41,624 nt of DNA from contig JAUWTN010000002.1 in NCBI GenBank assembly GCA_030614705.1, positions 1 to 41,624 of the forward strand, given 5' to 3'. Position numbers and translations under genes: made by a program. Positions 3,270 to 41,624 of this stretch are shown here, piece by piece. Under the pieces are notes generated by a model that saw only the letters and a list, made by a program, of their open reading frames with translations, did no database searches and was not told where the DNA came from. The DNA comes from Candidatus Aenigmatarchaeota archaeon (GTDB lineage: Archaea > Aenigmatarchaeota > Aenigmatarchaeia > QMZS01). Every line of letters begins with the position of its first letter. Position 1 is the stretch's first letter.

Positions 3270-3641
3270 TCATTTTACATACCCTTTATCCCTGTTTACA
3301 TTTTCTTCTTTAAAAATACAATCTTCCCCTCCAAATTCTTTACAATCACACCAAATATAAGGGTCTTCTTTCTTAAATATATTTTTAATAGCTGTACGAG
3401 GTAATTCATCTAAAGAATAGGTTCCTTTAAATTCAGTAGCTCCAAGTTCTTCATACCATTCAATTAATCCCTCTGTATTTAATCTATAACTATTACAACC
3501 TTCGCCACAACAAGCACTGACTTTTATAACTTTTCCCTGACTTATTTTTCGGTAGAGTTCATAATTATTTGGACTAATGCAATGGTCACTTTTAATCCCT
3601 TCATTTGTGTATTCAACAATTTTAGTTGATTCTCCAGTCAT
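3270..3641 (-). CDS. Hypothetical Cys-containing protein (123 aa)
   Basis: The ORF starts 2 nt after the stop of the upstream 521-aa gene. It has 7 Cys (ACCGEGC, WCDC). No family recognised. Confidence 0.6.
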   Translation of the reverse strand: MTGESTKIVEYTNEGIKSDHCISPNNYELYRKISQGKVIKVSACCGEGCNSYRLNTEGLIEWYEELGATEFKGTYSLDELPRTAIKNIFKKEDPYIWCDCKEFGGEDCIFKEENVNRDKGYVK

Positions 3642-3642
3642 T

Positions 3643-5208
3643 TTATTTCACCTTAATTTTATCGGCCAGCCCACTACCGATATATCTTTCAACATCATTT
3701 CCTTTCAAATAATTTCCCAAAGCCATGTCTCTGGATTCTCCAAGAACACGCATTTCTTCATAAATTGTTTGTGTGGAAATGGGAGCAGCTGCTTCACCTT
3801 TAGTCCAACTAATTAGGTCTTTAATGTATTTTCTTAGTGGATCTTGTCCGTTATCTAGTTTTATATTTAGCGGTTCTTCTTTATTCCAGTTATATACTTC
3901 GGGATTTAAAACATCATCTATATTCATTGGTTTTATTTCATCTAGTTTTTCACCCTCTAAAAATACTAAATATCTTTGAACTGCGGTCTCATCTTTAGGT
4001 GGTAAGGTATTTGTTATTCCTAACAAATATTTATCTTCTTCAGGGGGTTTTGTTAACCAAAAAGTTGTCCTTAATTCATCTCCCTGTCGTGGATAAATTG
4101 AACCTAAGAAATCAGAAAGTTTTTTCTCTAATTTTTCTGGTATACCATCCCAACTCCCTCTTAAATCTATAATTGGATTATATGATTGATTGTTTATCTG
4201 CAATTTAATCTCTGCGTCACCTGCTGCTACGGTTCCATCTATTTCTCTTATCGGATTTTCATTTCTATCTATTAAACAGGACTCCTCTCCAGGTCTTTTT
4301 CTTACATGCAGTCCATTTATCTTACTTTCAATAATTTCCACATTTCCTAAATGGCCTTGTGTATTATCTAAGAATTTTGCAAAATTATTGAAATCATGCA
4401 CTAATTTATCTCCAAATGGATCGTCGGATATACTTCTTTTTGGGTCAGTCTTTAATTTTTCATTAATTTCAGATTCTCTGTAATGCGCAGAGTATTCTAA
4501 GTTTAATCCATAAACCTTTCCAGCATTTATTAATGCCTGCATTTCCGGACTGTTTACTTCTATTGGATTTGTGGTTATTTTTCCATATCTTAATAAGTCT
4601 TCAAATTCTCCTTTTGTTTGCGTTGCTGGTTTTTCTGGAGCAAGATTTGTCATTTCTCTTTTTTTGACTAACAAAGGAGTATCATCAAATGCTATTTTTT
4701 TAGTGCCAACTTCACCTAAATAACTTGCCAATTCATAATGAGTTGGAGTTGGAGTTACAATAGCAACTACATCCGCTCTTTTTGCGATTTCTTCATATTC
4801 TTTAATATCTTTTATAATTGGTACAGCAACCAATTCACAGTCTTTATGAAATCTTGCTAAATTTGCTCTGTCTTCTGTCCAGTTAAAATCCTTTTCAAAA
4901 ATTTCTTTTTCTTCATCATTCCACCCAACAAAATCCGCATAATAAATTTGTGTTTTTTCCCCATATTCTCTTGGATTTATTTGGTCAAAAAATCTGTCCA
5001 ATGCCCATGAAAGATTTCCATTAGGTTTACCATCAATTATAGGATTCATTTCACTTATATAAGCGGGGTTTACAGTTGGATCTTCACTTATTATACCCCC
5101 TAAATGATTTGCATAGAATCTGCCAAAATATCCGCCAGCACCTACAACACCCATTGATACCTCCGGCTTTCCAATGTCTTCTTTTCTCATTTCATTTAGT
5201 GATTTCAT
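3643..5208 (-). CDS. Divergent Gfo/Idh/MocA-like NAD(P) oxidoreductase with large insertions (521 aa)
   Basis: N-terminal Rossmann VGVVGAGGYFGRFY, then VAIVTPTPTHYELASYL and the EKP motif (LAPEKPATQTKGEFEDLL). The C-terminal ~300 aa is unassigned. A TATA-like box lies ~25 nt upstream of the ATG and no SD is visible. Confidence 0.65.
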   Translation of the reverse strand: MKSLNEMRKEDIGKPEVSMGVVGAGGYFGRFYANHLGGIISEDPTVNPAYISEMNPIIDGKPNGNLSWALDRFFDQINPREYGEKTQIYYADFVGWNDEEKEIFEKDFNWTEDRANLARFHKDCELVAVPIIKDIKEYEEIAKRADVVAIVTPTPTHYELASYLGEVGTKKIAFDDTPLLVKKREMTNLAPEKPATQTKGEFEDLLRYGKITTNPIEVNSPEMQALINAGKVYGLNLEYSAHYRESEINEKLKTDPKRSISDDPFGDKLVHDFNNFAKFLDNTQGHLGNVEIIESKINGLHVRKRPGEESCLIDRNENPIREIDGTVAAGDAEIKLQINNQSYNPIIDLRGSWDGIPEKLEKKLSDFLGSIYPRQGDELRTTFWLTKPPEEDKYLLGITNTLPPKDETAVQRYLVFLEGEKLDEIKPMNIDDVLNPEVYNWNKEEPLNIKLDNGQDPLRKYIKDLISWTKGEAAAPISTQTIYEEMRVLGESRDMALGNYLKGNDVERYIGSGLADKIKVK

Positions 5209-5228
5209 TTATTATTATCTTAGTAACC

Positions 5229-5258
5229 TTTAAATACTTAGTATTACTTAGTAATACT
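5229..5258 (-). promoter_or_regulatory. 30-bp junction cassette, copy 1: 19-bp palindrome (AGTATTACT-T-AGTAATACT) abutting a TATA-like box
   Basis: The plus strand reads TTTAAATACTTAGTATTACTTAGTAATACT. It begins 2 nt after the stop of the 326-aa gene. On the minus strand the TATTTAAA box is centred ~25 nt upstream of the ATG at 5208. It is 29/30 identical to 7995-8024. Confidence 0.6.
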
Positions 5259-5259
5259 T

Positions 5260-6240
5260 TTAATCAGGAATCTCAAAATAAATATCAAATATATCCTTAT
5301 ATCGGCTCCAGATATTTTTTTCCGAAGGAGGTATTTGCAAATCCCAAAAAATCTCATCAATTTCTTCTTCTCTGTTTTTTACCTCTGGATGAAGATATTT
5401 GAGAAGTACCTCTCTTTTTGGAGTTACCCTGTGTTTTTTTATGTGATTCCTGTCAGGATAATTTGAAGGAACTGTGGATTGGCCGCATACATCAAGAAGA
5501 AAAAAGTAAGAATCCAATGGTGTTTTGGAAAGATTTCTGAGATGGTTATTGGGGTTATTTTTTATGGTTCCTTCCAAATATCCAGTGACTTTTTTATGAA
5601 CAAACTCTTTATCCTCTTTTTGGACAGCAATTGCACTGCAAAGAATATCACCCATACTCTCTCTCACAGTTCCCAAAATTTTGTATTCAATGTTTGTAAC
5701 TAAAAAAGCATCTTCTGCTTTATTGTAGGCTTTATGTAATTCATCCAGCCAGCCGTTTTTTTCTGTTAAATAATGAAGCAATCCCTCCTTTAATCCTTCT
5801 TTAGGCTCATTAGAATCCAGATTTACAAGAAGAAAACTTCTTTTTGTTGGTGTGGCTTCAGCCGGAATAAACATATCACTTGCTGTTTCATATGGTTTTC
5901 TTTCCCATTTGAGAAATTCTTCCACATCCTCTTTTTCACCAATATAATTTCCCGTGTTTATGGCATGTTCCATTCGCAGGTCTTTTTTTCCGAGTAAAGA
6001 TTTTGCATATTCATCATTTGCTAATAAAATATCTAATTTTCCTTCTATTTCATATTCTCCTAAAAGTTCAAAAAAATAATTTCCAAAATTATTATCCGGG
6101 ATAAATCCGTAAAATTTTATCCCAGGATAATTTTCTATCTTTGTGCCTGGTTCAAATACATACTCAAAACGGGAAAATGGGGTTCTTGTTTCTTTATCTT
6201 GAATTTTTTTTAAATCATCTGTTATCTTAATCAGACTCAT
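5260..6240 (-). CDS. Hypothetical protein (326 aa from Met12 of the track ORF)
   Basis: Long ORF. I prefer the ATG at 6240 (MSLIKITDD...) because it lies 1 nt after the stop (6242-6244) of the upstream gene, which removes a 32-nt overlap. No family recognised. Confidence 0.7.
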   Translation of the reverse strand: MSLIKITDDLKKIQDKETRTPFSRFEYVFEPGTKIENYPGIKFYGFIPDNNFGNYFFELLGEYEIEGKLDILLANDEYAKSLLGKKDLRMEHAINTGNYIGEKEDVEEFLKWERKPYETASDMFIPAEATPTKRSFLLVNLDSNEPKEGLKEGLLHYLTEKNGWLDELHKAYNKAEDAFLVTNIEYKILGTVRESMGDILCSAIAVQKEDKEFVHKKVTGYLEGTIKNNPNNHLRNLSKTPLDSYFFLLDVCGQSTVPSNYPDRNHIKKHRVTPKREVLLKYLHPEVKNREEEIDEIFWDLQIPPSEKNIWSRYKDIFDIYFEIPD

Positions 6241-6241
6241 T

Positions 6242-7897
6242 TTACAATTTACCAGACATTTCCGGTTTTGCACAATCTATAAATTTATTAATTAAACTGT
6301 CATTTAAATAAATTCTACCATCAGTTCTGAACGCATCAGTACCACCAACTTTTTTTATTTGGTAATTTACATAATCTTCAAAATCGTTATATGGTGATTC
6401 CATTCCAAGCTCTTTTCTAACCGCTATTAAAAATTCACGTTTATATTTTATTGTATCTAAATTCTCTTCATCATATTTATCAGAAAAATAAGTTTCAATA
6501 TTGTCTTTAATTCCTGACATCCTTTCCCCAATTTCTTTTGCTTCATATGGCAAGTCGTTTGTGCGTATAACTTTTGCACCCCCGATAAAAACATCAGAAC
6601 TATAGTTTGTTGATGGGAAAACACCTATTTTCAGTCTGTATTCTTCAACATCCGGTACTTTTACGCCAATATCAAATACAGTTCCTAGTACATCAGGATA
6701 TCCATAAATAAGGTTCCCTTCCTCATCAGAAACACCAGTATATATTCTGGTTATCATCCTACCACCATTACCAAGTTCAAAATTAACAGGTTTTTCATAT
6801 TCTTCTTTTGGAAGACCACTAAGAACCTCTTTCACAGTTTTTCTCGCTTCTTTGAATGAAGATTCTTCTTCACTATAAACAGGTAGCCTTATACGAGAAT
6901 CCAGAACTCCTGTTATATTTTCAATATATTTGTTTGTTTCAAATTCTTTTCCAGATAATAAATCTATTATCTCCTGACTGACATTCTCAACAACTTCTGT
7001 TTTCGTAACAGGCATGAAATTAATCCCATCGCCACAATCTTCTAGATAATCGAAAGATTCTTTTGTTATAGAACCATCAGAAAGGAGAATATATTTATCT
7101 TTCCCATGCAAAGAATCTTCATCTATCTGTTCCACTTTTTCAACTTTTCCGTCTCCCCAATATCTCCTGAAACCCCCTATATTTTCTATTCTATTATTCT
7201 CATCAATTTCAGGTTCATAATAAATATCCACATATCCATTTGCATCAAAGGGTTTAACCATATTTCTTATCAAGTCATATTTTGCAAAATAGGCGCATGT
7301 TTGGTTTAGTTCTGATTGGCTATTGTCCAACTTAAATTTCCCACCCGCTGCTTTTTTAGCTTTAAAGTACTCATCGTTTGCTATACACCACTTTACCACC
7401 TCCCTTATTTTTTCCGGTTTTTCCAATTTTTCATAAAGTTTCGTGGCAAAATAAAATGAATTATCAACTTTAGAAGATTTATTTCCAGATAAAATTTCTT
7501 CCATTCTAATTTCCGCTAGTTTTTCTGTATATATTTCATCTCCATGGTTCAGAGCGGCACTACTGGCACGATCTATATATCCTCTTTTCAAACCAGAATC
7601 TATAATATCCGGAACCATATCTTCCCCGCCGTTGTTTACTAAAAGGTTTAATCTATTGCCAAAATTGTTGCGTGAACTCCATGTATTCTCAGCTTCAAAA
7701 CTCTTATAAACAAGATTCTTTGCATCTTCGCTTCTACCCAAAGCATTTAAAGCAACAGAAACTGCCTCAACACCTCTTCCTGCATAACCTTTTAGTGCTT
7801 TTGTAAATGCAGGATTATCAGAAATATCATCTCCTATTAGCTCAAATCCATATTCAGTTAGAGTTTCATTGAGATTACTAATTGTTTTTGTTGTCAT
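6242..7897 (-). CDS. Hypothetical protein (551 aa)
   Basis: Long ORF in AT-rich DNA with a strong SD-like AGGTGAT 6-12 nt upstream of the ATG at 7897. No family recognised. Confidence 0.75.
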   Translation of the reverse strand: MTTKTISNLNETLTEYGFELIGDDISDNPAFTKALKGYAGRGVEAVSVALNALGRSEDAKNLVYKSFEAENTWSSRNNFGNRLNLLVNNGGEDMVPDIIDSGLKRGYIDRASSAALNHGDEIYTEKLAEIRMEEILSGNKSSKVDNSFYFATKLYEKLEKPEKIREVVKWCIANDEYFKAKKAAGGKFKLDNSQSELNQTCAYFAKYDLIRNMVKPFDANGYVDIYYEPEIDENNRIENIGGFRRYWGDGKVEKVEQIDEDSLHGKDKYILLSDGSITKESFDYLEDCGDGINFMPVTKTEVVENVSQEIIDLLSGKEFETNKYIENITGVLDSRIRLPVYSEEESSFKEARKTVKEVLSGLPKEEYEKPVNFELGNGGRMITRIYTGVSDEEGNLIYGYPDVLGTVFDIGVKVPDVEEYRLKIGVFPSTNYSSDVFIGGAKVIRTNDLPYEAKEIGERMSGIKDNIETYFSDKYDEENLDTIKYKREFLIAVRKELGMESPYNDFEDYVNYQIKKVGGTDAFRTDGRIYLNDSLINKFIDCAKPEMSGKL

Positions 7898-23405: not shown

Positions 23406-24278
23406 ATGAGGAAAATAATAGTCTTATTACTCGTAATCTTAGCGGTTTCTCCAGTTTTTGGAGATTTGCCAACAAAATATAGTGAGTGCAATATATCAGT
23501 AAATCTTGATGAAAACGGAATTGCCTATGAAAACATAATAATTAAGGTTCCTGAATTTATGGATAAATTCAATTATTATATTATCCATCGCGTGAAAAAT
23601 CTTGAGATTTATGATATTTCAAATAAATTGAAATGTGAATGGAAATATGAGCGATTAGGAACACTGATTTCCTGCGAGAATATAAACACAAAAATAATTA
23701 ATATCTCGTTCAATTATCTGGGTTTAGTTACTCAATATGAAGATTATGACATTTTCTCAGACAGATATGTTGTCTCCACACCAACAGATGAATTTAATTT
23801 GAAGATATTCCTTCCAAAGGGTTACATCTTAGTTGATAATAGTGGTGAACTAAACCAATCACCTTATTACCCAATTAACGGAAAACAGGGAACTGATGGT
23901 CGGAATATTTTTATAGAATGGAACTCAAATCCTGGACTTGGGGAAGTGCATGATATCTCAATATTTTATGAACCAGCCTTAACTTCAAACCAATTCACAG
24001 CCCTGATAATCACTTTCTTTGTTCTGATTGTAATGATTTCTGTTTTCCTGATATTTAGAAAAAAACCAAAATCTCTTGATTATGGGATTACTGAAGACGA
24101 AAAGAAATTCCTTGAAGTATTGGCTAAAGAAAACAAAGTTTCACAGAAAAAAATTTCCAGAGAAATTAACCTATCTAAAGCCCAAGTAAGCAGAATTGCT
24201 CATTCTCTTGAAAAAAGAGGGCTTATTGATAGAAAAAGGATTGGGCGGAATTATGAGGTCTCAATTAAGAAAAACTGA
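23406..24278 (+). CDS. Membrane-tethered winged-helix (MarR/TrmB-like) DNA-binding protein with an extracytoplasmic N-terminal domain
   Basis: Signal/anchor MRKIIVLLLVILAVSPVFG, a ~180-aa outside domain, TM helix FTALIITFFVLIVMISVFLIF, then EDEKKFLEVLAKENKVSQKKISREINLSKAQVSRIAHSLEKRGLIDRKRIGRNYEV. Confidence 0.7.
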   Translation: MRKIIVLLLVILAVSPVFGDLPTKYSECNISVNLDENGIAYENIIIKVPEFMDKFNYYIIHRVKNLEIYDISNKLKCEWKYERLGTLISCENINTKIINISFNYLGLVTQYEDYDIFSDRYVVSTPTDEFNLKIFLPKGYILVDNSGELNQSPYYPINGKQGTDGRNIFIEWNSNPGLGEVHDISIFYEPALTSNQFTALIITFFVLIVMISVFLIFRKKPKSLDYGITEDEKKFLEVLAKENKVSQKKISREINLSKAQVSRIAHSLEKRGLIDRKRIGRNYEVSIKKN

Positions 24279-30963: not shown

Positions 30964-31518
30964 TTATTCCAAAAGCAACATTGCAGCTTCATATTTTGGT
31001 TTAATTACTACCTTTGCTCTTAGGGTTAATTTTTTCCACGACCTTTGTAGTTTTTCTTTAACAAAAGTTTTTGATTCATTTGTTTCTAATTTCCTTGTAA
31101 CCAATGCCAAATTAAACAAACTCGCAATATTGTCAAAGTGAGACATTGCGTCCGCATCAGAAATACATTCCGCTTCTATTGTTTCGCGTTTAATATCTTT
31201 GCTTCCTCTATGAGCCAAAATGCAATGCTTAATCTGTTCAATCCTGTCTTTTGGATAATTATATTCGGTTAATAGTTTCTCAGCATGCTCTGCCCCTGAG
31301 ATATGGTGATTTTTATAATCCCCTAAAATACTTCCTATATCATGCAACCAGGCTGCGATTTCCACAATTTCCATATCCGCGTTGGTTTCTTTTGCTAACT
31401 GTTTTGCATATTTCACCATGCTAACAAAATGGTAATTATAAGCGGCTATCCCAAAAAAATTAGTTTCCTTTCCGCATTCATTTTTTACATACTCCCTTAT
31501 TTCCTCAACTAAATCCAT
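30964..31518 (-). CDS. HD-domain metal-dependent phosphohydrolase
   Basis: 184 aa with AAWLHDIGS (HD motif), downstream HxxGA, and ILAHRG. Confidence 0.8.
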   Translation of the reverse strand: MDLVEEIREYVKNECGKETNFFGIAAYNYHFVSMVKYAKQLAKETNADMEIVEIAAWLHDIGSILGDYKNHHISGAEHAEKLLTEYNYPKDRIEQIKHCILAHRGSKDIKRETIEAECISDADAMSHFDNIASLFNLALVTRKLETNESKTFVKEKLQRSWKKLTLRAKVVIKPKYEAAMLLLE

Positions 31519-31635
31519 AATTATATTAATCTGGATTTATATGCTGGAAATCTAGTTTCCAGTGATTTTTCTAAGATATTTTTCCATCCATTTAATAATA
31601 TCAGGAACTTCTCTTAAAAACTTTATATCATCAAA

Positions 31636-32151
31636 TTATTTATAAATCCTCTCAACCAAAACTGAACCGCATGCATTTTTGATAAGATTGCATTTTTCAA
31701 AATCACTTCTCTTTTTAAAATCAGAACTTCCTTCACCCCAGGTTTTTATCATACCCTCTATCCCCGGAGTCATGCAATCGCAAACAAGATAATTTACCAG
31801 CTCCAAATCTTTCTCAGAAATGTCCAGTTTAGTCCAGGGGTTTCTTGGATTTGAAGGATTATTTTCAGTGCAGGTTAAAAACCAGTTTGCGCATTCTCTT
31901 TCAAGTTCATCATAAACAAAAACCGTTTGCACCTCATTTAGAAAATTTTCATAGATTTTAATATATTTTCCTGAAACCACATCCATCAATTCTTCTCCGC
32001 CCCACACAAGAGGATTTCCCATCTTTTCATAAGTTCCTTCTTTGCTTGTAAAATTTGTGAATAAAGCAAGACTTTGCACCATCATAAAAAGCAAGATTAC
32101 AACAAGAATTGTTACCAACACCGGCGCCTTTCCTTCATCTCCTTTCATCAT
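31636..32151 (-). CDS. Membrane-anchored/secreted Cys-containing protein (171 aa), last gene of the surface operon
   Basis: MMKGDEGKAPVLVTILVVILLFMMVQSLALF anchor. 7 Cys in the outside part. ATGA overlap with the upstream gene. Confidence 0.7.
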   Translation of the reverse strand: MMKGDEGKAPVLVTILVVILLFMMVQSLALFTNFTSKEGTYEKMGNPLVWGGEELMDVVSGKYIKIYENFLNEVQTVFVYDELERECANWFLTCTENNPSNPRNPWTKLDISEKDLELVNYLVCDCMTPGIEGMIKTWGEGSSDFKKRSDFEKCNLIKNACGSVLVERIYK

Positions 32152-32423
32152 TTACACAAAAGCTGAGAAGAACCAAGATTTTTGCATTCCTGTTTGCAAC
32201 CGCTTACAGTAGCACAATTAAATCCTTTTTTGATATCCTGGGGGACTGGCTCCTCGCAATCCCACATATCGCAGGAAGTTCTTAAAGTAGAATTTCCTTT
32301 GAAAGGTTCTACAAATCCGAGTTGAGTTCCCATAATAAAAAAGGCCACAACACCTAAACAGATTGCCAAAAGTATAATTTCCAACAAATATTTATTTTCC
32401 AAACCTTTATACAACTCGCCCAT
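32148..32423 (-). CDS. Membrane-anchored small Cys-rich protein (91 aa)
   Basis: TM helix LLEIILLAICLGVVAFFIMG followed by 7 Cys in 45 aa. Confidence 0.65.
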   Translation of the reverse strand: MGELYKGLENKYLLEIILLAICLGVVAFFIMGTQLGFVEPFKGNSTLRTSCDMWDCEEPVPQDIKKGFNCATVSGCKQECKNLGSSQLLCK

Positions 32424-32426
32424 AAT

Positions 32427-32591
32427 TTAAGACATTATTGGTATAAATATTGACAAAGCGCTTGCTAATGATGCTTTAAGCGAGTCCACAATTGGCATAA
32501 AACCCCCTGTGAGCAAAAGAAAAAATACAGTTAATATTACTAAAAACGCAAATACCCAAAATACAGGTCTTACAGGAATATCACCTCTCAT
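32427..32591 (-). CDS. 54-aa membrane micro-protein (MRGDIPVRPVFWVFAFLVILTVFFLLLTGGFMPIVDSLKASLASALSIFIPIMS)
   Basis: Own translation. It starts 2 nt after the stop of the vWA gene and ends 3 nt before the next ATG. Below the ORF-track cut-off. Confidence 0.5.
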   Translation of the reverse strand: MRGDIPVRPVFWVFAFLVILTVFFLLLTGGFMPIVDSLKASLASALSIFIPIMS

Positions 32592-32593
32592 AA

Positions 32594-35011
32594 TTAATAC
32601 AAATCCTTTATTTCTTCGAGCATTGGATTTAATTCAAAGGTCTTGTTATATGTTTCGTCCGAAGTGCATATTTTATTCCAGTCCCCGCCGCAAGGATAAG
32701 ACCATTTATTCCATGAAGAAGTGTCACCTCTCCAGTCAACAATATAAACCAAATTTGAAAAAACTTCTTCATAAATTTCCCTCCATACATAAGGGATGTC
32801 TGCTGGAAGAGTGTTTTTAAGGAGATTAATATAAGTATCATAACCAAGTTCAAATTCTTCATCTTTTTTAATTGCCCCAGCAATTAAAGTTATAAGACTC
32901 AAAGTATCTCCAGTATCAAAAAAGGCTGCTGTTCCTTTTGTTGGCTCAGAAATATCTCTAAATAATTGTTTTAAACCTGATTCTATATCTGAAGTCCCAC
33001 TCTTACCCCACAAACCAAAAATTGTTATTTCATGATCATTTGCTGCATCAACTGCTGAGTTAACAGATTCCCTATCCGCTTCTTCAGTCCAGGGATCACC
33101 ATCAGAAGGTCCTTCATCTCCAATAACAAATAAAATTCTTGATAAAGCATTAGCTCTCCAGGGATGATTTTCAATTGCCCATACTGCGCCATTTCCCCAA
33201 CTCTCATCATCAACAGGAATAAAATCATCTGCGCAATAATTAGTCCCGCTACAGGTTTCTTTCCCTAAACCGTAGATAGTTATTTCAACTTTATAATCTT
33301 CTTTCTCAACATCAGCAACAATATCATCTATAACACCGCACAATTTAGCCCATTCATTTGATCCCTGCTGGCACATACTTCCGCTTGTATCAATAACAAA
33401 AACCAAATCAACATTCTTGCCAAATTCCACATATTCTGGTTTATCATAAATTCTTGAAGCCCATTCGCATCCATTAATGCACTTATTAGCTTTTTCCGTG
33501 TCTTTATAATAACCATCTCTTGAGATGCAAAAATTCCTGCAATTTACAAATGTATTTTCAGTTTCTCTCATTTCTTCTGTTACACATTCACAAGACTTTT
33601 CACAATTCTTTCTAACCACATAACCCAAAGTCCATTTCTCTGTCCAAGGTAAACGTGTTAAAGGGTCATCTTTAGTCTCACACAAATTTTTCACTTCCAG
33701 TTTAGATATACAAACACCTTTCCAGCAAATCTCAAGTGTTGATTCACCTTCGCAAACACTTTCCCAGCAATTGTAATAACAATTGAAATGATTTGGATTA
33801 TAACAATTATCCCCGGGGTGCTGTTCTCTGGTTGTTATTTTTGAAACCACCCACGCAGGACCTCTATAATCTCCCCCAGTCCATTTCAAATCACCTATCT
33901 TAAAATTATTGTATTCCGAGGAATTTATCTGAAAAACTGATTTTTCAAAATAAGTAAAATTCTCGCATCCTATCTTTACATCTCCCAATAAACCTTCGCA
34001 GAAATTATTTATTAAATTATATTCTTCGATTGAAACGCAATCATCGCATAAACATTCCTGTGAACATATATCAGCATCGCCTGTTCTCTCATAACATTTT
34101 CTATAACATTCTCTTTCGTCTCCAATCCTGCAACCATCCACGCAATTTGCTTCATCTCCGTTAAAATCAACATTACAATAATTCTCGCATATTGTCAAAG
34201 TAGTCTCATTATAATATTTTTCATTTGTATAGCAATCGCATTTTATTCTGCATTCAATTTCTGAATTTGAGGATCTGCAATCGCTGTAACAATCCCAATT
34301 TTCTCCAAAGTAACAACTCTTATCCGTTCCGGCAAATTCTGAAATCCTGTTTGGATCATTGTTTGGGTCGTCGCCCACAGTTCCTTTGTAAAGAGCCGCA
34401 GTAACTTTCTCAACAGTCCTGTCTCCTCTCAATTTCATCCCCCCATAAACTGAAAGTTTTGGTTCTTCCCCAGACATCACAACAAAGACTGAAGGCTGTC
34501 CTTTAATTCCTGTAAAATTTTGCTGTTCTAAATCTTTTCCTATTGCGCTCACAGGTTCGTACACGGTTCCAAAATCAAGACTTCTTCTCATCGAAAGCAT
34601 ACCTTCTTCTTCCCAACCGGGAAAATCATCTTTCATGCACAAACATCCTTTCCTGTCGCAATCAATGCAATAACCATCTAGCTTAATCCCATTCTTCAAA
34701 TTATCTTTAATAAGTGTATTCCAAAAACCCGGGTCTATATAGATATTAGTTCCTATTTCAAGGAAAGCATTTCTTAAATCTTCATCACCAAGAACATTAT
34801 TATAAACAGATTCTGCTTCTGAATCAGGAGGAATAAAACAACCAATAGGAATTCTGTCAGATAAAATTATATCAGTTCTCTCCCTCACATCATCAAATAA
34901 AAGCATATCAGTAGATTGTTTCATGATTACACTCCAAAAAGAAATCCCAACAACCAAAGTAATACTAACGCAAACAAGAGAAACCAAAATTAAAAAAGAA
35001 CTCCGGTTCAT
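32594..35011 (-). CDS. Large secreted/anchored Cys-rich protein with a von Willebrand factor A domain (805 aa)
   Basis: N-terminal anchor FLILVSLVCVSITLVVGISFW. About 44 Cys by my count, in CxxxC / CxC-rich stretches. The MIDAS motif VDLVFVIDTSGSMC is encoded near 33378-33392, followed by ILFVIGDEGPSDG. Confidence 0.85.
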   Translation of the reverse strand: MNRSSFLILVSLVCVSITLVVGISFWSVIMKQSTDMLLFDDVRERTDIILSDRIPIGCFIPPDSEAESVYNNVLGDEDLRNAFLEIGTNIYIDPGFWNTLIKDNLKNGIKLDGYCIDCDRKGCLCMKDDFPGWEEEGMLSMRRSLDFGTVYEPVSAIGKDLEQQNFTGIKGQPSVFVVMSGEEPKLSVYGGMKLRGDRTVEKVTAALYKGTVGDDPNNDPNRISEFAGTDKSCYFGENWDCYSDCRSSNSEIECRIKCDCYTNEKYYNETTLTICENYCNVDFNGDEANCVDGCRIGDERECYRKCYERTGDADICSQECLCDDCVSIEEYNLINNFCEGLLGDVKIGCENFTYFEKSVFQINSSEYNNFKIGDLKWTGGDYRGPAWVVSKITTREQHPGDNCYNPNHFNCYYNCWESVCEGESTLEICWKGVCISKLEVKNLCETKDDPLTRLPWTEKWTLGYVVRKNCEKSCECVTEEMRETENTFVNCRNFCISRDGYYKDTEKANKCINGCEWASRIYDKPEYVEFGKNVDLVFVIDTSGSMCQQGSNEWAKLCGVIDDIVADVEKEDYKVEITIYGLGKETCSGTNYCADDFIPVDDESWGNGAVWAIENHPWRANALSRILFVIGDEGPSDGDPWTEEADRESVNSAVDAANDHEITIFGLWGKSGTSDIESGLKQLFRDISEPTKGTAAFFDTGDTLSLITLIAGAIKKDEEFELGYDTYINLLKNTLPADIPYVWREIYEEVFSNLVYIVDWRGDTSSWNKWSYPCGGDWNKICTSDETYNKTFELNPMLEEIKDLY

Positions 35012-35178
35012 GATATTGCGGGGGTTAACAAAGCCCCTCTGGTGAAATTAATAATTATGGAAGCAATATTATATAAAAAATCAACATTTAATTTCCCTGA
35101 AAACAACAAAAATATCACGACTGCAGTCATTGCAATAAATAAAATCCCAACCAATTGATTCGTAGTAAGGTTATCCAT
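35008..35178 (-). CDS. 56-aa membrane micro-protein (MDNLTTNQLVGILFIAMTAVVIFLLFSGKLNVDFLYNIASIIINFTRGALLTPAIS)
   Basis: Own translation. Its TGA overlaps the ATG of the vWA gene (ATGA). Confidence 0.5.
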   Translation of the reverse strand: MDNLTTNQLVGILFIAMTAVVIFLLFSGKLNVDFLYNIASIIINFTRGALLTPAIS

Positions 35179-35236
35179 AATTTACTTTAGTTAATGTAAT
35201 AATAGCAAATTAATCAAAAATTAAGGCAATGATAAC

Positions 35237-36838
35237 TCATTCAAAATTGAAATTTATTAAACCAGTGTTCTCAAAAAAAATCACATTTTCATTATCTTTC
35301 ATGGCTTCGATTGTTTTATCAATTATACTAACTGCGCATATCCATGCAGACTCTTTGTAGGTTTTATAATCAAACTCTGGGGTCCTCAATAAATATACAT
35401 CCCAACCCTCTTTCGGAATCCACAATGGTCCGAGATAAAAAGGAATATTATCCACTTTTTTTGCAAAATTTGAATAAGGGATTATGCCTCTTAGATAAGT
35501 TGGTTTTGGGGAAACAGGCAACTCAGTCCCGTCCAGTCTGCAAAAAGCATAAGGATTGTAAAGATTATAATTTCCATCTTCTTCCATGCAAAACCATGTT
35601 GATCTTTTATCTAAACCTGTTGTATCAGAAGCTATCTTCAAATATTCTAATTGAATTAACTCAGGCGAGGATCTGCACTGGTCCCAATTAATCTCTCTCC
35701 CCTCAAAATCTTTAACATCCCGGTATAAATTTGAGACCTCAATTCCATTTGGAACTTTTGCCCTGCAAGGATAAATCAAAATATCTTTTACAGAATTTGC
35801 ACCTGAATCTTCCTTGAATAAATCTTCCTGCAAAGTCTTAAAATCATAAACAAATTTCCTATCCTCAAGCACATCAAGATAATAAACAATCTGGAAATAT
35901 ATGGAATCTATTTTTTCAGTCTCCCATATTTTCACCCCATCATTGGCGGTAACATAAACCTCAAGAACTGGTTCAATCACAGCAAAACTGGGGCAACATT
36001 CATCAACAACATTAAAGACAAAAGAACATTCATATTTCTCAGAAGAAATCACTCTGCAGATTCTATTGCCATAACTGTCATCCATGCTCATTAAATCAGC
36101 TATGCCAAATGAATTTTCATCCACACCCAGAGTCTTCAGGTAATTATTCTTTTCAGAATACCTGTCCGCAATATATTTCACGCTTAAATTTACATTATCA
36201 GGTGATTCATCAAAACGATAATTTTTTGATGTATAATATTTCCGCAATTCATTCAGGTCTATTGTCAAAGTTAAATCAACTTTTCCGAAAGATTCGTCTG
36301 TGTTAAGATGACAAACATCCTCATCGCATATTGCAGGAGATTGTGTAGAACCTCCAAAATTATCAGTTACCAAAGGATAAAACGCAATTACTGGAGAAAT
36401 TGGTTTTCTGACATCAAATTTAATACCAATGTTATTCAAGGGAGTAAATAAATGATTGAATAAAACATTTGTCAGATGCGGAAGATAATCTAATTCAATA
36501 TTATCTGAAGAAGGAATCCCGATATATTCTTTGATATAAACATTATTTGTAGGGAAAACAAAATCCCTTGAATCTCTGTTTGTTTCATCATAAATTTTAC
36601 CAAAATCAAGGGTGGTATTGCCATCAACAATTAATTTTTCCCCGAACCACACAACTGGAGGGAGAACAAAAGTTTTTGTGTCCGCAGATTCCAAAGACAT
36701 CCAAACCCCTTTTGGCATTCCCATATAATTATCATGATCTTCACCTGAAAAAAGAGTTCCGGTTAACACAAAAAATATACCTAAAGATACTACAGCCATC
36801 ACCAACATTGCCATGGACTCTACAGCCATTCCTTTCAT
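35237..36838 (-). CDS. Large extracytoplasmic protein with a prepilin-like N-terminus (533 aa)
   Basis: MKG MAVESMAMLVMAVVSLGIFFVLTG: a short basic stretch ending in Gly, then a hydrophobic helix. About 11 Cys. No other family recognised. Confidence 0.8.
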   Translation of the reverse strand: MKGMAVESMAMLVMAVVSLGIFFVLTGTLFSGEDHDNYMGMPKGVWMSLESADTKTFVLPPVVWFGEKLIVDGNTTLDFGKIYDETNRDSRDFVFPTNNVYIKEYIGIPSSDNIELDYLPHLTNVLFNHLFTPLNNIGIKFDVRKPISPVIAFYPLVTDNFGGSTQSPAICDEDVCHLNTDESFGKVDLTLTIDLNELRKYYTSKNYRFDESPDNVNLSVKYIADRYSEKNNYLKTLGVDENSFGIADLMSMDDSYGNRICRVISSEKYECSFVFNVVDECCPSFAVIEPVLEVYVTANDGVKIWETEKIDSIYFQIVYYLDVLEDRKFVYDFKTLQEDLFKEDSGANSVKDILIYPCRAKVPNGIEVSNLYRDVKDFEGREINWDQCRSSPELIQLEYLKIASDTTGLDKRSTWFCMEEDGNYNLYNPYAFCRLDGTELPVSPKPTYLRGIIPYSNFAKKVDNIPFYLGPLWIPKEGWDVYLLRTPEFDYKTYKESAWICAVSIIDKTIEAMKDNENVIFFENTGLINFNFE

Positions 36839-36948
36839 TATGGACCGGGCACCGCATTAAGAAACATGGTAAAAATTGCAATAATTATTACTGCTACCAC
36901 AAATAAAGCAATCAGACCAACAACCATATTAATAGACATTCCTTTCAT
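36838..36948 (-). CDS. 36-aa MKG micro-protein C (MKGMSINMVVGLIALFVVAVIIIAIFTMFLNAVPGP)
   Basis: Own translation. Its TAA shares one base with the ATG of the 533-aa gene (TAATG). Confidence 0.5.
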   Translation of the reverse strand: MKGMSINMVVGLIALFVVAVIIIAIFTMFLNAVPGP

Positions 36949-37037
36949 GTTGGGAAAATATTTGCTACTGAAAATATTAACAATACCAACAAAAGACCTG
37001 CTATCAGATAAAATATAAGCATAAAATTTCCTTTCAT
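36945..37037 (-). CDS. 30-aa MKG micro-protein B (MKGNFMLIFYLIAGLLLVLLIFSVANIFPT)
   Basis: Own translation, with ATGA overlaps at both ends. Confidence 0.45.
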   Translation of the reverse strand: MKGNFMLIFYLIAGLLLVLLIFSVANIFPT

Positions 37038-37177
37038 GATGGTATTAAACCAGGCAATATTTTAAGCATATTTAAACCATATTCTGAACTCCACATGGCA
37101 ATTCCAACAAAAACCGCAATAACAATAAGAACTACTATGACCCAAAACAATAAATCCGTAGTTATTCCTTTTTTCAT
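37034..37177 (-). CDS. 47-aa MKKG micro-protein A (MKKGITTDLLFWVIVVLIVIAVFVGIAMWSSEYGLNMLKILPGLIPS)
   Basis: Own translation. It is the first cistron of the operon. A TTTATTATA box lies ~25 nt upstream, inside the 5' end of the divergent fni gene. Confidence 0.5.
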   Translation of the reverse strand: MKKGITTDLLFWVIVVLIVIAVFVGIAMWSSEYGLNMLKILPGLIPS

Positions 37178-37188
37178 AATATTAATAT

Positions 37189-38208
37189 ATGAGTATAATA
37201 AACAGGAAAAAACAGCACATCAAAATATGCCTGAAAGAGAAAGTTGAGGAAAAGAGCTATTTTGATGATATTGTTCGTGTGTATAATGCGTTGCCGGATG
37301 TAGACTTTGATGAAATAAACACAAAAGTCGAATTTCTCGGGAAAGAATTAAATTTACCGCTGATAATTTCTTCCATGACAGGGGGGACAGAAGAAGCAAA
37401 AGAAATAAATAAAATTCTTGCAAAAGTCGCTGAAAACAAAAAGATTGGTTTTGCGGTGGGTTCGCAGAGAGCAATGATAGAAAATAAAGAATTAAGCGAA
37501 ACTTTTTTTGTAAGAGATGTTGCTCCATCAACACTTGTTCTTGGAAATATTGGCATCCCAAATTTAAATGAATTAAGTTCTGAAGAAATAAAAAATGCCA
37601 TAAAGGAAATCGGAGCTGATGGATTATTTATTCATTTAAATCCAGCGCAGGAAATTGCGCAAAAAGAAGGTGATATAAACTTTAAAAATTCCATTAAGTT
37701 ATTAAAGAAGTTGGTCTCTGAGTTAGACTTCCCAATAATTGCTAAAGAAGTTGGTCAGGGAATTAGTAAAGAAACCGGAGAGGTATTGAAAAAATGCGGA
37801 GTAAAAGCAATTGATGTTGCCGGAGTAGGGGGAACCAACTGGATAAAAGTTGAAACTTTCAGGGGAGGAAGTATCCCGGATAGTTTACTTAACTTTGGAA
37901 TCCCAACAACATGTTCTCTTCTTGAATTAAAAAATCTTGGGGTTGATTTAATCTCAAGCGGGGGAATAAGAAATGGATTGGATATTGCAAAATCAATTGC
38001 GCTTGGAGCAAAGATTTGCGGAATTGCTTTGCCATTTTTGAAGGCTTATGAAAAAGGCGGGGAAGAAGAGGTTATAAAATATGTTGATAGAATTGAAAAA
38101 GAATTGAAAACAGTAATGTTCTTGGTTGGTGCAAAAAATATTGAGGAACTAAGAAATAAAAGGTACATTTTGAGAGGACTTACTAAAGAATGGGGTGAGC
38201 AGATTTAA
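37189..38208 (+). CDS. fni: Isopentenyl-diphosphate delta-isomerase, type 2 (FMN-dependent)
   Basis: RKKQHIKICL, ISSMTGGT, AKEVGQGIS, DVAGVGGTNW, SGGIRNGLDIAKSIALGA. Confidence 0.93.
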   Translation: MSIINRKKQHIKICLKEKVEEKSYFDDIVRVYNALPDVDFDEINTKVEFLGKELNLPLIISSMTGGTEEAKEINKILAKVAENKKIGFAVGSQRAMIENKELSETFFVRDVAPSTLVLGNIGIPNLNELSSEEIKNAIKEIGADGLFIHLNPAQEIAQKEGDINFKNSIKLLKKLVSELDFPIIAKEVGQGISKETGEVLKKCGVKAIDVAGVGGTNWIKVETFRGGSIPDSLLNFGIPTTCSLLELKNLGVDLISSGGIRNGLDIAKSIALGAKICGIALPFLKAYEKGGEEEVIKYVDRIEKELKTVMFLVGAKNIEELRNKRYILRGLTKEWGEQI

Positions 38209-38691: not shown

Positions 38692-38767
38692 AATTTATAG
38701 GTTAAATTAATTATCCATAAAAACAAAAAATTGAGGATTTGAAATAGGTACAAGGAATAAAGCATTT

Positions 38768-41624
<2,857 letters not shown>

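Follow-up and report, generated by a model that had tools for sequence, protein, structure and literature searches.

The stretch of archaeal DNA analyzed here (41,624 nt of contig JAUWTN010000002.1, hereafter the window) carries on its minus strand, at 31636-37177, an operon of nine tightly packed cistrons, which we name g1 to g9 in transcription order; L-numbers denote related loci or contigs and P-numbers homologous proteins. We lean towards the view that the operon encodes lineage-specific type IV pilin-like proteins with class III signal peptides, which would form a pilus, a pseudopilus or a bindosome-like complex with an exchangeable adhesion head. Since most of the products combine a [KR]G motif with a hydrophobic helix, and one of the large products carries a von Willebrand factor A (vWA) head, the operon makes a good though unproven candidate for a structure used in cell attachment. 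An initial annotation of the same DNA had proposed an undescribed surface-filament or adhesion system; its observations were partly confirmed and its interpretation is partly supported.

DPANN archaea must attach to their hosts, and the attachment molecules are unknown for nearly all lineages. The source organism has a small genome and is a DPANN archaeon of the Aenigmarchaeota, the assignment resting on the archaeal large-subunit (23S) rRNA gene in the window and on homologues in Aenigmarchaeota metagenome-assembled genomes (MAGs); an archaeal source had already been claimed.

Organization of the operon

The cistrons are as follows, a slash marking the position directly after the Gly of the N-terminal motif.

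g1, 37034..37177, minus strand: 47 aa, MKKG/ITTDLLFW..., one helix and a 16-residue tail
g2, 36945..37037, minus strand: 30 aa, MKG/NFMLIFYLIAG..., practically one hydrophobic helix, overlapping g1 by 4 nt
g3, 36838..36948, minus strand: 36 aa, MKG/MSINMVVG...
g4, 35237..36838, minus strand: 533 aa, MKG/MAVESM..., N-terminal helix followed by a beta-rich ectodomain, 11 Cys
g5, 35008..35178, minus strand: 56 aa, single helix, MDNLTTNQ..., no [KR]G
g6, 32594..35011, minus strand: 805 aa, N-terminal helix MNRSSFLILV..., Cys-rich helical region, vWA head and conserved C-terminal segment of ~90 residues
g7, 32427..32591, minus strand: 54 aa, MRG/DIPVRPVFW...
g8, 32148..32423, minus strand: 91 aa, ...YKG/LENKYLLEIILL..., 7 Cys, conserved C.MW[DN]C[ER]EP[IV]P motif
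g9, 31636..32151, minus strand: 171 aa, MMKG/DEGKAPVLVTILVV..., 6 Cys, final operon gene in the window

From g1 to g9 the junctions measure -4, -4, -1, +58, -4, +2, +3 and -4 nt, which agrees with the earlier description of tight packing with one 58-nt gap. This only sizeable gap lies upstream of g5, which in turn overlaps g6 by 4 nt. Ten genes had been counted previously; a search of the gaps found no further open reading frame (ORF) of 15 aa or more that would encode a hydrophobic helix, leaving nine. All nine products have exactly one strong hydrophobic segment, at the N-terminus (Kyte-Doolittle 19-mer score 2.4-3.35), and the single N-terminal helix per product that had been noted is therefore upheld.

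A [KR]G motif ahead of the hydrophobic helix

Starts of the form M(M)K(K)G are found in g1, g2, g3, g4 and g9 and an MRG start in g7, the same five and one as had been read before, and g8 additionally has KG at residues 6-7. Within the first 7-8 residues, [KR]G is present in 7/9 operon products and in 1/39 other window ORFs (Fisher p = 3.7e-6), and in relatives the figures are 63/80 for system ORFs, belonging to 11 gene families, and 1/17 for other ORFs with an N-terminal transmembrane segment (p = 2e-8). When 51 N-termini from the 11 gene families were aligned on the Gly, they showed an M(x0-3)[KR]G leader and then the hydrophobic helix, with a common pattern after the Gly of a hydrophobic residue, S/T, T/I/V and D/E/N. 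The motif is kept among orthologues down to ~30-40% identity and also in the distant g4 homologues P0041-P0046, one of which (P0042, MKGQISQ...) resembles EppA-type KGQ sites. Outside the core set, matches came from further members of extended operons and from one unrelated KG/VS protein (L016).

Archaeal prepilin peptidases recognize substrates with G, A or S at -1 and a charged residue at -2, the site lying ahead of the H-domain, and their known processing sites include KG/IS (UpsB) and KG/QV (PMC4371748). Seven of the nine window products show this arrangement, the hydrophobic stretch of roughly 20 residues beginning directly at +1 in g2, g3 and g4 and being offset by polar or charged residues in g1, g7, g8 and g9.

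The same N-termini could be explained by a non-filamentous surface complex, in which they would serve as uncleaved type II anchors, Lys/Arg would reflect the positive-inside rule, and the small helices would stabilize or assemble two large disulfide-rich ectodomain proteins, giving a membrane adhesin or receptor without type IV machinery. We consider this explanation possible, if distinctly less probable than pilin-like subunits. The positive-inside rule does not account for an invariant Gly after Lys/Arg in ~11 unrelated families, and the ordinary secreted and membrane proteins of the same loci start with MKR or MRK, without the Gly.

The micro-proteins g1, g2, g3, g5 and g7

To judge by their synteny in relatives and by synonymous-biased substitution, the micro-ORFs are real coding genes under purifying selection. 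Compared with L001, the g1 protein is 100% identical although 7 codons differ, all of them synonymously (0 non-synonymous), at a locus where g6 is only 69% identical; for g3 the changes are 12 synonymous and 3 non-synonymous. Orthologues of g1 (46-47 aa) occupy the same position in L001, L003, L008, L009, L010, L013 and L020, and those of g2 (30-40 aa, starting M(x)[KR]G) are present in L001, L003, L008, L010 and L013. The orthologues of g3 show [KR]G/[MIL][ST]xN and those of g7 (alignment A5) M[KR]G in most cases, while g5 orthologues (alignment A4) start with MKG/IS in L003 and with MRQMKG/IT in L013. Absence of the micro-ORFs from relatives had been named beforehand as grounds for giving up the proposal; they are conserved, so it stands on this point.

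To our knowledge, g1-g3, at 30-47 aa in total, are shorter than any characterised archaeal pilin, and g1 is a candidate short, Flp-sized pilin-like subunit. Its profile retrieved 6 clusters among 5.8 billion proteins and showed a weak similarity to g7 (hhalign probability 79%); a homology between g5 and g7 was also considered and not significant in hhalign. Helix-only proteins of 30-36 aa with a conserved MKG start would be hard to see as "anchors of nothing", which speaks against the signal-anchored complex.

In L011 (7651-7944), L018 (9625-9903) and L019 (6187-6459), g1 and g2 are fused in frame into a protein of ~90-97 aa with an internal K(K/R)KG/hydrophobic site. This fusion poses a puzzle of topology and processing, for which a two-helix hairpin, internal initiation or double cleavage may be envisaged.

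The large proteins g6 and g4

Two regions of g6 follow its N-terminal part.

33467..34315, minus strand: Cys-rich part of g6 (residues ~233-515), whose predicted helices contain ten CX3C pairs
32867..33415, minus strand: vWA (integrin I-like) domain of g6, residues ~533-715, alternating strand and helix in the model

In the AF2 model of g6 (predicted local distance difference test, pLDDT, 69.5), a helix at 3-34 and a strand-rich segment are followed by a Cys-rich helical part at ~233-520 and an alpha/beta domain at 533-715. The protein has 44 Cys and the motif DTSGS at residues 541-545, consistent with the ~44 Cys and the DTSGS reported earlier. The CX3C pairs lie at 241/245, 254/258, 275/279, 290/294, 302/306, 316/320, 411/415, 470/474, 491/495 and 511/515, and many Cys of this region are invariant in alignment A1. 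Going by the model, the region is likely composed of extracellular, disulfide-stapled helical hairpins.

The VWA models of Pfam stayed below their gathering thresholds (PF00092, 16.4 vs 23.8 bits; PF13519, 15.1 vs 27) and covered the first ~42 profile positions only. Foldseek matched the modelled domain to further vWA domains and to the integrin I domains 1n3y, 1mf7 and 8ce9 with probability 1.0, TM(target) 0.62 and E 5e-4; with this match the predicted structure of residues 533-715 has the vWA (Rossmann-like alpha/beta) fold, confirming the vWA domain of the initial annotation. DTSGS corresponds to the DxSxS of the metal-ion-dependent adhesion site (MIDAS; nt 33377-33391) and is kept in the vWA-bearing orthologues. 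Of the downstream Thr and Asp of a complete site, an Asp is conserved in the FV(I/V)GDEGP strand, and the Thr was left without an assignment. A Bat/MoxR-type vWA system was ruled out, as no MoxR ATPase or DUF58 gene is nearby.

The homologues of g6 (alignment A1) form 15 clusters, none with a Pfam domain except one with DUF2341; two carry source names, both Aenigmarchaeota MAGs. In some of these homologues the vWA segment is replaced by Gly-rich repeats (P0010, P0015) or by DUF2341 (P0013), and both flanks are kept, which makes the g6 head a swappable cassette. Such head swapping suggests a switch of ligand specificity.

The other large protein, g4, has 21 homologue clusters, all without Pfam domains, one of which carries a source name, again an Aenigmarchaeota MAG; its profile search found just 21 representatives among 1.84 billion proteins. 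In the AF2 model (pLDDT 68.9), a helix at 2-30 is followed by beta strands. Ig-like, NPC2 and fimbrial-like folds were weighed and the fold left unassigned, the Foldseek matches in PDB and BFVD being weak (TM 0.1-0.4). Profile searches of PDB sequences with alignments A1 and A2 found no relatives, and hhalign detects no homology between g4 and g6 beyond the transmembrane helix. That the large proteins match no nameable family outside the vWA core had been stated before, and indeed the Pfam and NCBIfam scans of all nine products gave only the sub-threshold VWA.

At L001:6209-9802, the g4 orthologue reaches 1197 aa through an insertion of ~660 aa; the precomputed annotation lists PF27237 AF_1625_C there, which our Pfam scan did not recover.

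The operon in related genomes

The operon belongs to a narrow clade, all genome records with related loci being Aenigmarchaeota MAGs. Across the related contigs the gene order recurs with products of 46-47, 30-40, 36-40, ~500-585, 52-56, ~760-850, 50-56, 84-92 and 167-172 aa, and the distant L018 and L019 have a layout of ~90, 35, 563-606, 52, 833-907 and 53 aa. Orthologues of g8 (84-92 aa) were found in L001, L003 and L006-L010, and those of g9 measure 167-172 aa. Seven Cys had been claimed for each of these two products; the number is right for g8, and g9 has 6.

In most relatives the operon continues with g10 (KKG/IEVEYFFF), g11 (711-1063 aa) and further MKG-starting proteins, which the window lacks (L001:13676-18827; L003:13240-19108; downstream of L006-L009). 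The extra MKG proteins carry Lcl_C/DUF4215, PKD or a MopE-type metal-binding motif. The LH_S genomes have the system in two parts, with g1-g4 (without g5) beside the same IDI2-like FMN_dh gene as in the window on one contig (L020:9597-11743) and g6-g9 on another, where they are preceded by a Sec-signal Big_13 protein of 2,823-2,845 aa (L006:680-9217, L007:746-9217). The distant lineage of L016 (4405-9123) and L017 (2946-6161) has a minimal g4-g5-g6-g7 core of 538, 56, 499 and 50 aa. The operon is, in short, modular in composition across relatives. The core of L016 is interrupted after g4 by an ATPase-like gene of 396 aa, beyond which g5 follows.

Head swapping together with Lcl_C, DUF4215, PKD and MopE-type modules on MKG proteins is typical of adhesins. 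These features bear on a further explanation, a type IV pseudopilus for secretion or for uptake of host DNA or nucleotides, similar to the pseudopili of type II secretion systems (T2SS) or Com systems, in which the vWA protein would act not as an adhesin but as a priming or accessory subunit. A set that looks rich in minor-pilin-like subunits and shows no obvious major pilin, larger and abundant, would suit such a function, as would the dependence of DPANN archaea on host-derived building blocks (PMC8407114), and the evidence from the N-terminal motif is shared with the pilus. Yet neither the operon nor its flanks showed any secretion substrate, nuclease, ComEC-like channel or DNA-binding domain, and the head swapping and the adhesin-type domains of the extended operons indicate ligand binding. 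We therefore hold the pseudopilus for secretion or uptake to be unlikely.

Pilin-like subunits or signal anchors

Several observations weigh against pilin-like subunits. The first concerns the N-termini. Between the Gly and the hydrophobic core there are 4-8 polar or charged residues (ITTD in g1, DIPVRP in g7, LENKY in g8, DEGKAP in g9), which is atypical; g5 lacks the motif in this window; and in most lineages g6 has R-S, R-A or R-T (M[NK]R[S/A/T]), with MRG in L011. In the L016/L017 lineage, the g4-g5-g6-g7 core is entirely without [KR]G. The class III-like layout proposed earlier fits the seven products that follow the published rule, in which the motif is also conserved in orthologues, and does not extend to g5, to most g6 proteins or to this lineage. 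Moreover, PibD cuts engineered leaders of 3-4 residues and FlaK requires at least 5 (PMC4187195), so the leaders of 3-4 residues are as short as PibD has been shown to accept and shorter than FlaK needs. The g1-g2 fusions (L011, L018, L019), with their internal KKKG site, are hard to reconcile with simple processing.

The second concerns families and folds. No pilin, archaellin or class III signal model was matched at E <= 1 by any of the 9 products in Pfam and NCBIfam, so that all such models of those libraries remain unmatched. The AF2 models of g4 and g6 show a helix of ~30 residues, a low-confidence linker and an ectodomain, unlike pilins, in which the helix packs against a globular domain.

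The third concerns the machinery. According to the gene tables, genes for an ATPase, a platform protein or a prepilin peptidase are found neither in the window nor, in ~16 related loci, up to 10 kb from the operon. A motif scan of the window and ~350 kb of related loci found no T2SSE-type Walker A and no A24 GxGD[..]K motif, and the window has no polytopic membrane ORF; motif scans and gene tables accordingly agree with the previous report that the window holds none of these genes. In the distant loci L018, L019, L020 and L021 as well, the operon never adjoins type IV machinery.

Much of this would favor the signal-anchored complex, namely the minimal L016/L017 core without any [KR]G, the lack of a canonical Gly in g5 and g6 of the window, the flexible linker that AF2 places after the helix of g4 and g6, the zero matches to pilin families and the lack of linked type IV genes in every locus examined. 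In addition, each large protein is followed by a single-helix partner of ~50-56 aa (g4 by g5, g6 by g7), an arrangement that would fit an anchored complex.

As for the machinery, pilin genes unlinked to ATPase and platform genes are normal in archaea (PMC4371748), and DPANN pilins are often unrecognisable from sequence (Makarova et al.; PMC6393860). Of 23 Aenigmarchaeota MAGs, 21 have Peptidase_A24 (PF01478) and 22 have FlaI and FlaJ, but only 5 have recognised pilins (arCOG02420; PMC8407114 supplement). Machinery without known substrates is consequently common in the phylum.

A possible route of assembly and its significance

If the products are pilin-like subunits, the following route may be envisaged. 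The nine cistrons would be co-transcribed and translationally coupled, and each product would be inserted N-in/C-out through its single N-terminal helix. A leader of 2-6 residues ending in [KR]-G would then be cut at the cytoplasmic face by an A24 (PibD/FlaK-type) prepilin peptidase, and the freed hydrophobic helices would be assembled by an unlinked FlaI/FlaJ-type ATPase and platform into a pilus, a short pseudopilus or a bindosome-like surface complex. The helix-only g1-g3, with ~27-43 residues when mature, would make up the core, and the disulfide-rich g4 and g6, their small partners g5 and g7, and g8 and g9 the distal or accessory part. Metal-dependent binding of a ligand, most plausibly on the surface of a host cell, would fall to the exchangeable vWA/MIDAS head of g6. 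That the leaders are cleaved, that type IV machinery is used, that a filament forms and that hosts are bound are all things that we infer.

Saccharibacteria use type IV pili in their episymbiosis. By analogy, and tentatively, an undescribed kind of archaeal pilus could be imagined in the Aenigmarchaeota, in which ultra-short, Flp-sized, helix-only core pilins (g1-g3, ~27-43 residues mature) with leaders of 3-4 residues are capped or decorated by giant disulfide-stapled pilin-like proteins, whose ligand-binding heads (vWA, DUF2341 or Gly-rich modules) would be swapped from strain to strain to suit different hosts, the whole serving as a DPANN organelle for host capture.

The operon offers a concrete, conserved and wholly unannotated set of candidate substrates for the Aenigmarchaeota prepilin peptidase and FlaI/FlaJ, including an exchangeable vWA head. 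If the proteins are indeed pilin-like, they would provide testable targets in host recognition (the N-terminal cleavage site, the vWA MIDAS and head swapping), widen the known size range of archaeal pilin-like subunits and yield sequence profiles with which about a dozen "hypothetical" families could be annotated. Should the signal-anchored complex prove true instead, it would represent a new kind of multi-subunit archaeal surface complex.

Genomic context

The neighbouring features are the following.

38765-41624: archaeal large-subunit (23S) rRNA gene, reaching the contig end
37189-38208, plus strand: IDI2-like FMN_dh gene, divergent from g1
30964-31518: HD-domain gene, next after g9, unrelated to the operon

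The operon is thus flanked by housekeeping genes, the IDI2-like FMN_dh gene and the 23S rRNA gene, and the pairing of g1 with FMN_dh is syntenic in relatives. GC is ~32% across the window with no break in composition at the operon, whose GC content and skew match those of the flanks. These data speak to the idea that the operon is a module derived from a mobile element or virus, or that its small ORFs are spurious. In L001 and L002 the operon has a fragment of an IS66 transposase ~5 kb away, and g4 has weak Foldseek matches to uncharacterised phage proteins. However, the viral fold matches have TM of just 0.1-0.2, no integrase or capsid genes were seen nearby, and spurious ORFs would not explain the synonymous-biased change in the micro-ORFs. 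Given the composition and the housekeeping synteny that relatives preserve, a viral or mobile origin is rejected, and we regard this explanation as a whole as very improbable.

The start codons of g1 and FMN_dh are 11 nt apart (37177-37189), so each promoter must sit inside the coding sequence of the neighbour; both transcripts are probably leaderless. A promoter within the AT-rich 11-nt divergent intergenic region was considered and not assigned, its TATA-like strings lying at a non-canonical distance. A T5 run at 31616-31620 is found 16 nt past the g9 stop.

Protein-coding genes flank the visible side of the 23S rRNA gene, with no 16S gene there. Elsewhere in the window, four consecutive ORFs on the minus strand at 3270-7897 (123 aa with 7 Cys, 521, 337 and 551 aa) have no Pfam match and no transmembrane segment and form a second block of unknown function. 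A 290-aa protein encoded at 23406-24278 on the plus strand combines a Sec-type signal peptide with another hydrophobic segment around residue 200 and ends in a MarR/TrmB-type winged helix; possibly it regulates transcription while tethered to the membrane.

Comparison with known systems

The archaeal class III pilin-like proteins, substrates of PibD, FlaK and EppA (Ups, Aap and Epd pilins, bindosome subunits), have the same short charged [KR]-G leader before the H-domain; likewise, they are encoded by many genes per genome, often unlinked to the ATPase and platform genes, and comprise large beside small members (PMC4371748, PMC4858521). In contrast to them, the operon products have no sequence similarity to Pfam or NCBIfam families, their leaders have just 2-6 residues, and polar residues often stand between the site and the hydrophobic core.

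Type IV pilus loci of DPANN archaea include signal-peptide proteins without similarity to known pilins, which have been read as pilins (Makarova, Wolf, Koonin 2019, Fig. 2A; PMC6393860). Those "dark-matter" pilins were called by their adjacency to FlaI and TadC, whereas the operon is never beside these genes in the loci examined and guilt by association is therefore inapplicable. An archaeal extracellular vWA protein, classified as an archaeal cluster of orthologous genes (arCOG) and a suspected member of a type IV pilus-like system, is listed for 1/23 Aenigmarchaeota MAGs (PMC8407114 supplement). Having no Pfam Ig-like domain and a VWA match below threshold, g6 is probably not recognised as this arCOG.

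Tad/Flp pili are alike in their Flp-size helix-only subunits, larger pilin-like proteins and a vWA member, the vWA domain being carried by TadG (PMC4858521). The initial annotation had seen the logic of Flp, TadE-F and TadG in the operon; membership in that family set finds no support, as the operon lacks G/XXXXEY (g1-g3 examined), leaves TadE and Tad of Pfam unmatched at E <= 1 and belongs to an archaeal organism, and neither the window nor any related locus examined has genes for CpaF/TadA, TadB/C and TadV. Unlike TadG, g6 mostly has no Gly at -1. At most, g10 of relatives (KKG/IEVEY) is reminiscent of the Flp motif.

PilY1 (Pseudomonas, Myxococcus) with its minor pilins and the modular pilin PilB of Streptococcus sanguinis are vWA-bearing type IV pilus adhesins, in which a vWA/MIDAS beside a minor-pilin-like cluster is presumed to be displayed for adhesion. 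Compared with PilY1, g6 has no C-terminal PilY1/PilC beta-propeller (no Pfam match), its C-terminal ~90 residues being a small conserved segment. Moreover, the vWA domain of g6 is set between the CX3C-rich helical region and that segment and is exchangeable, and no sequence relationship is detectable.

The resemblance of the operon to Tad/Flp and to PilY1 is therefore one of logic, not of homology. Unrecognisable type IV pilins in DPANN archaea and vWA adhesins on type IV pili are already known concepts. What is new is an operon that in none of the loci examined is linked to assembly genes, with about a dozen families so far without annotation, subunits of 30-47 aa that consist of a helix only, leaders of 3-4 residues and a CX3C-stapled, head-swapping vWA protein.

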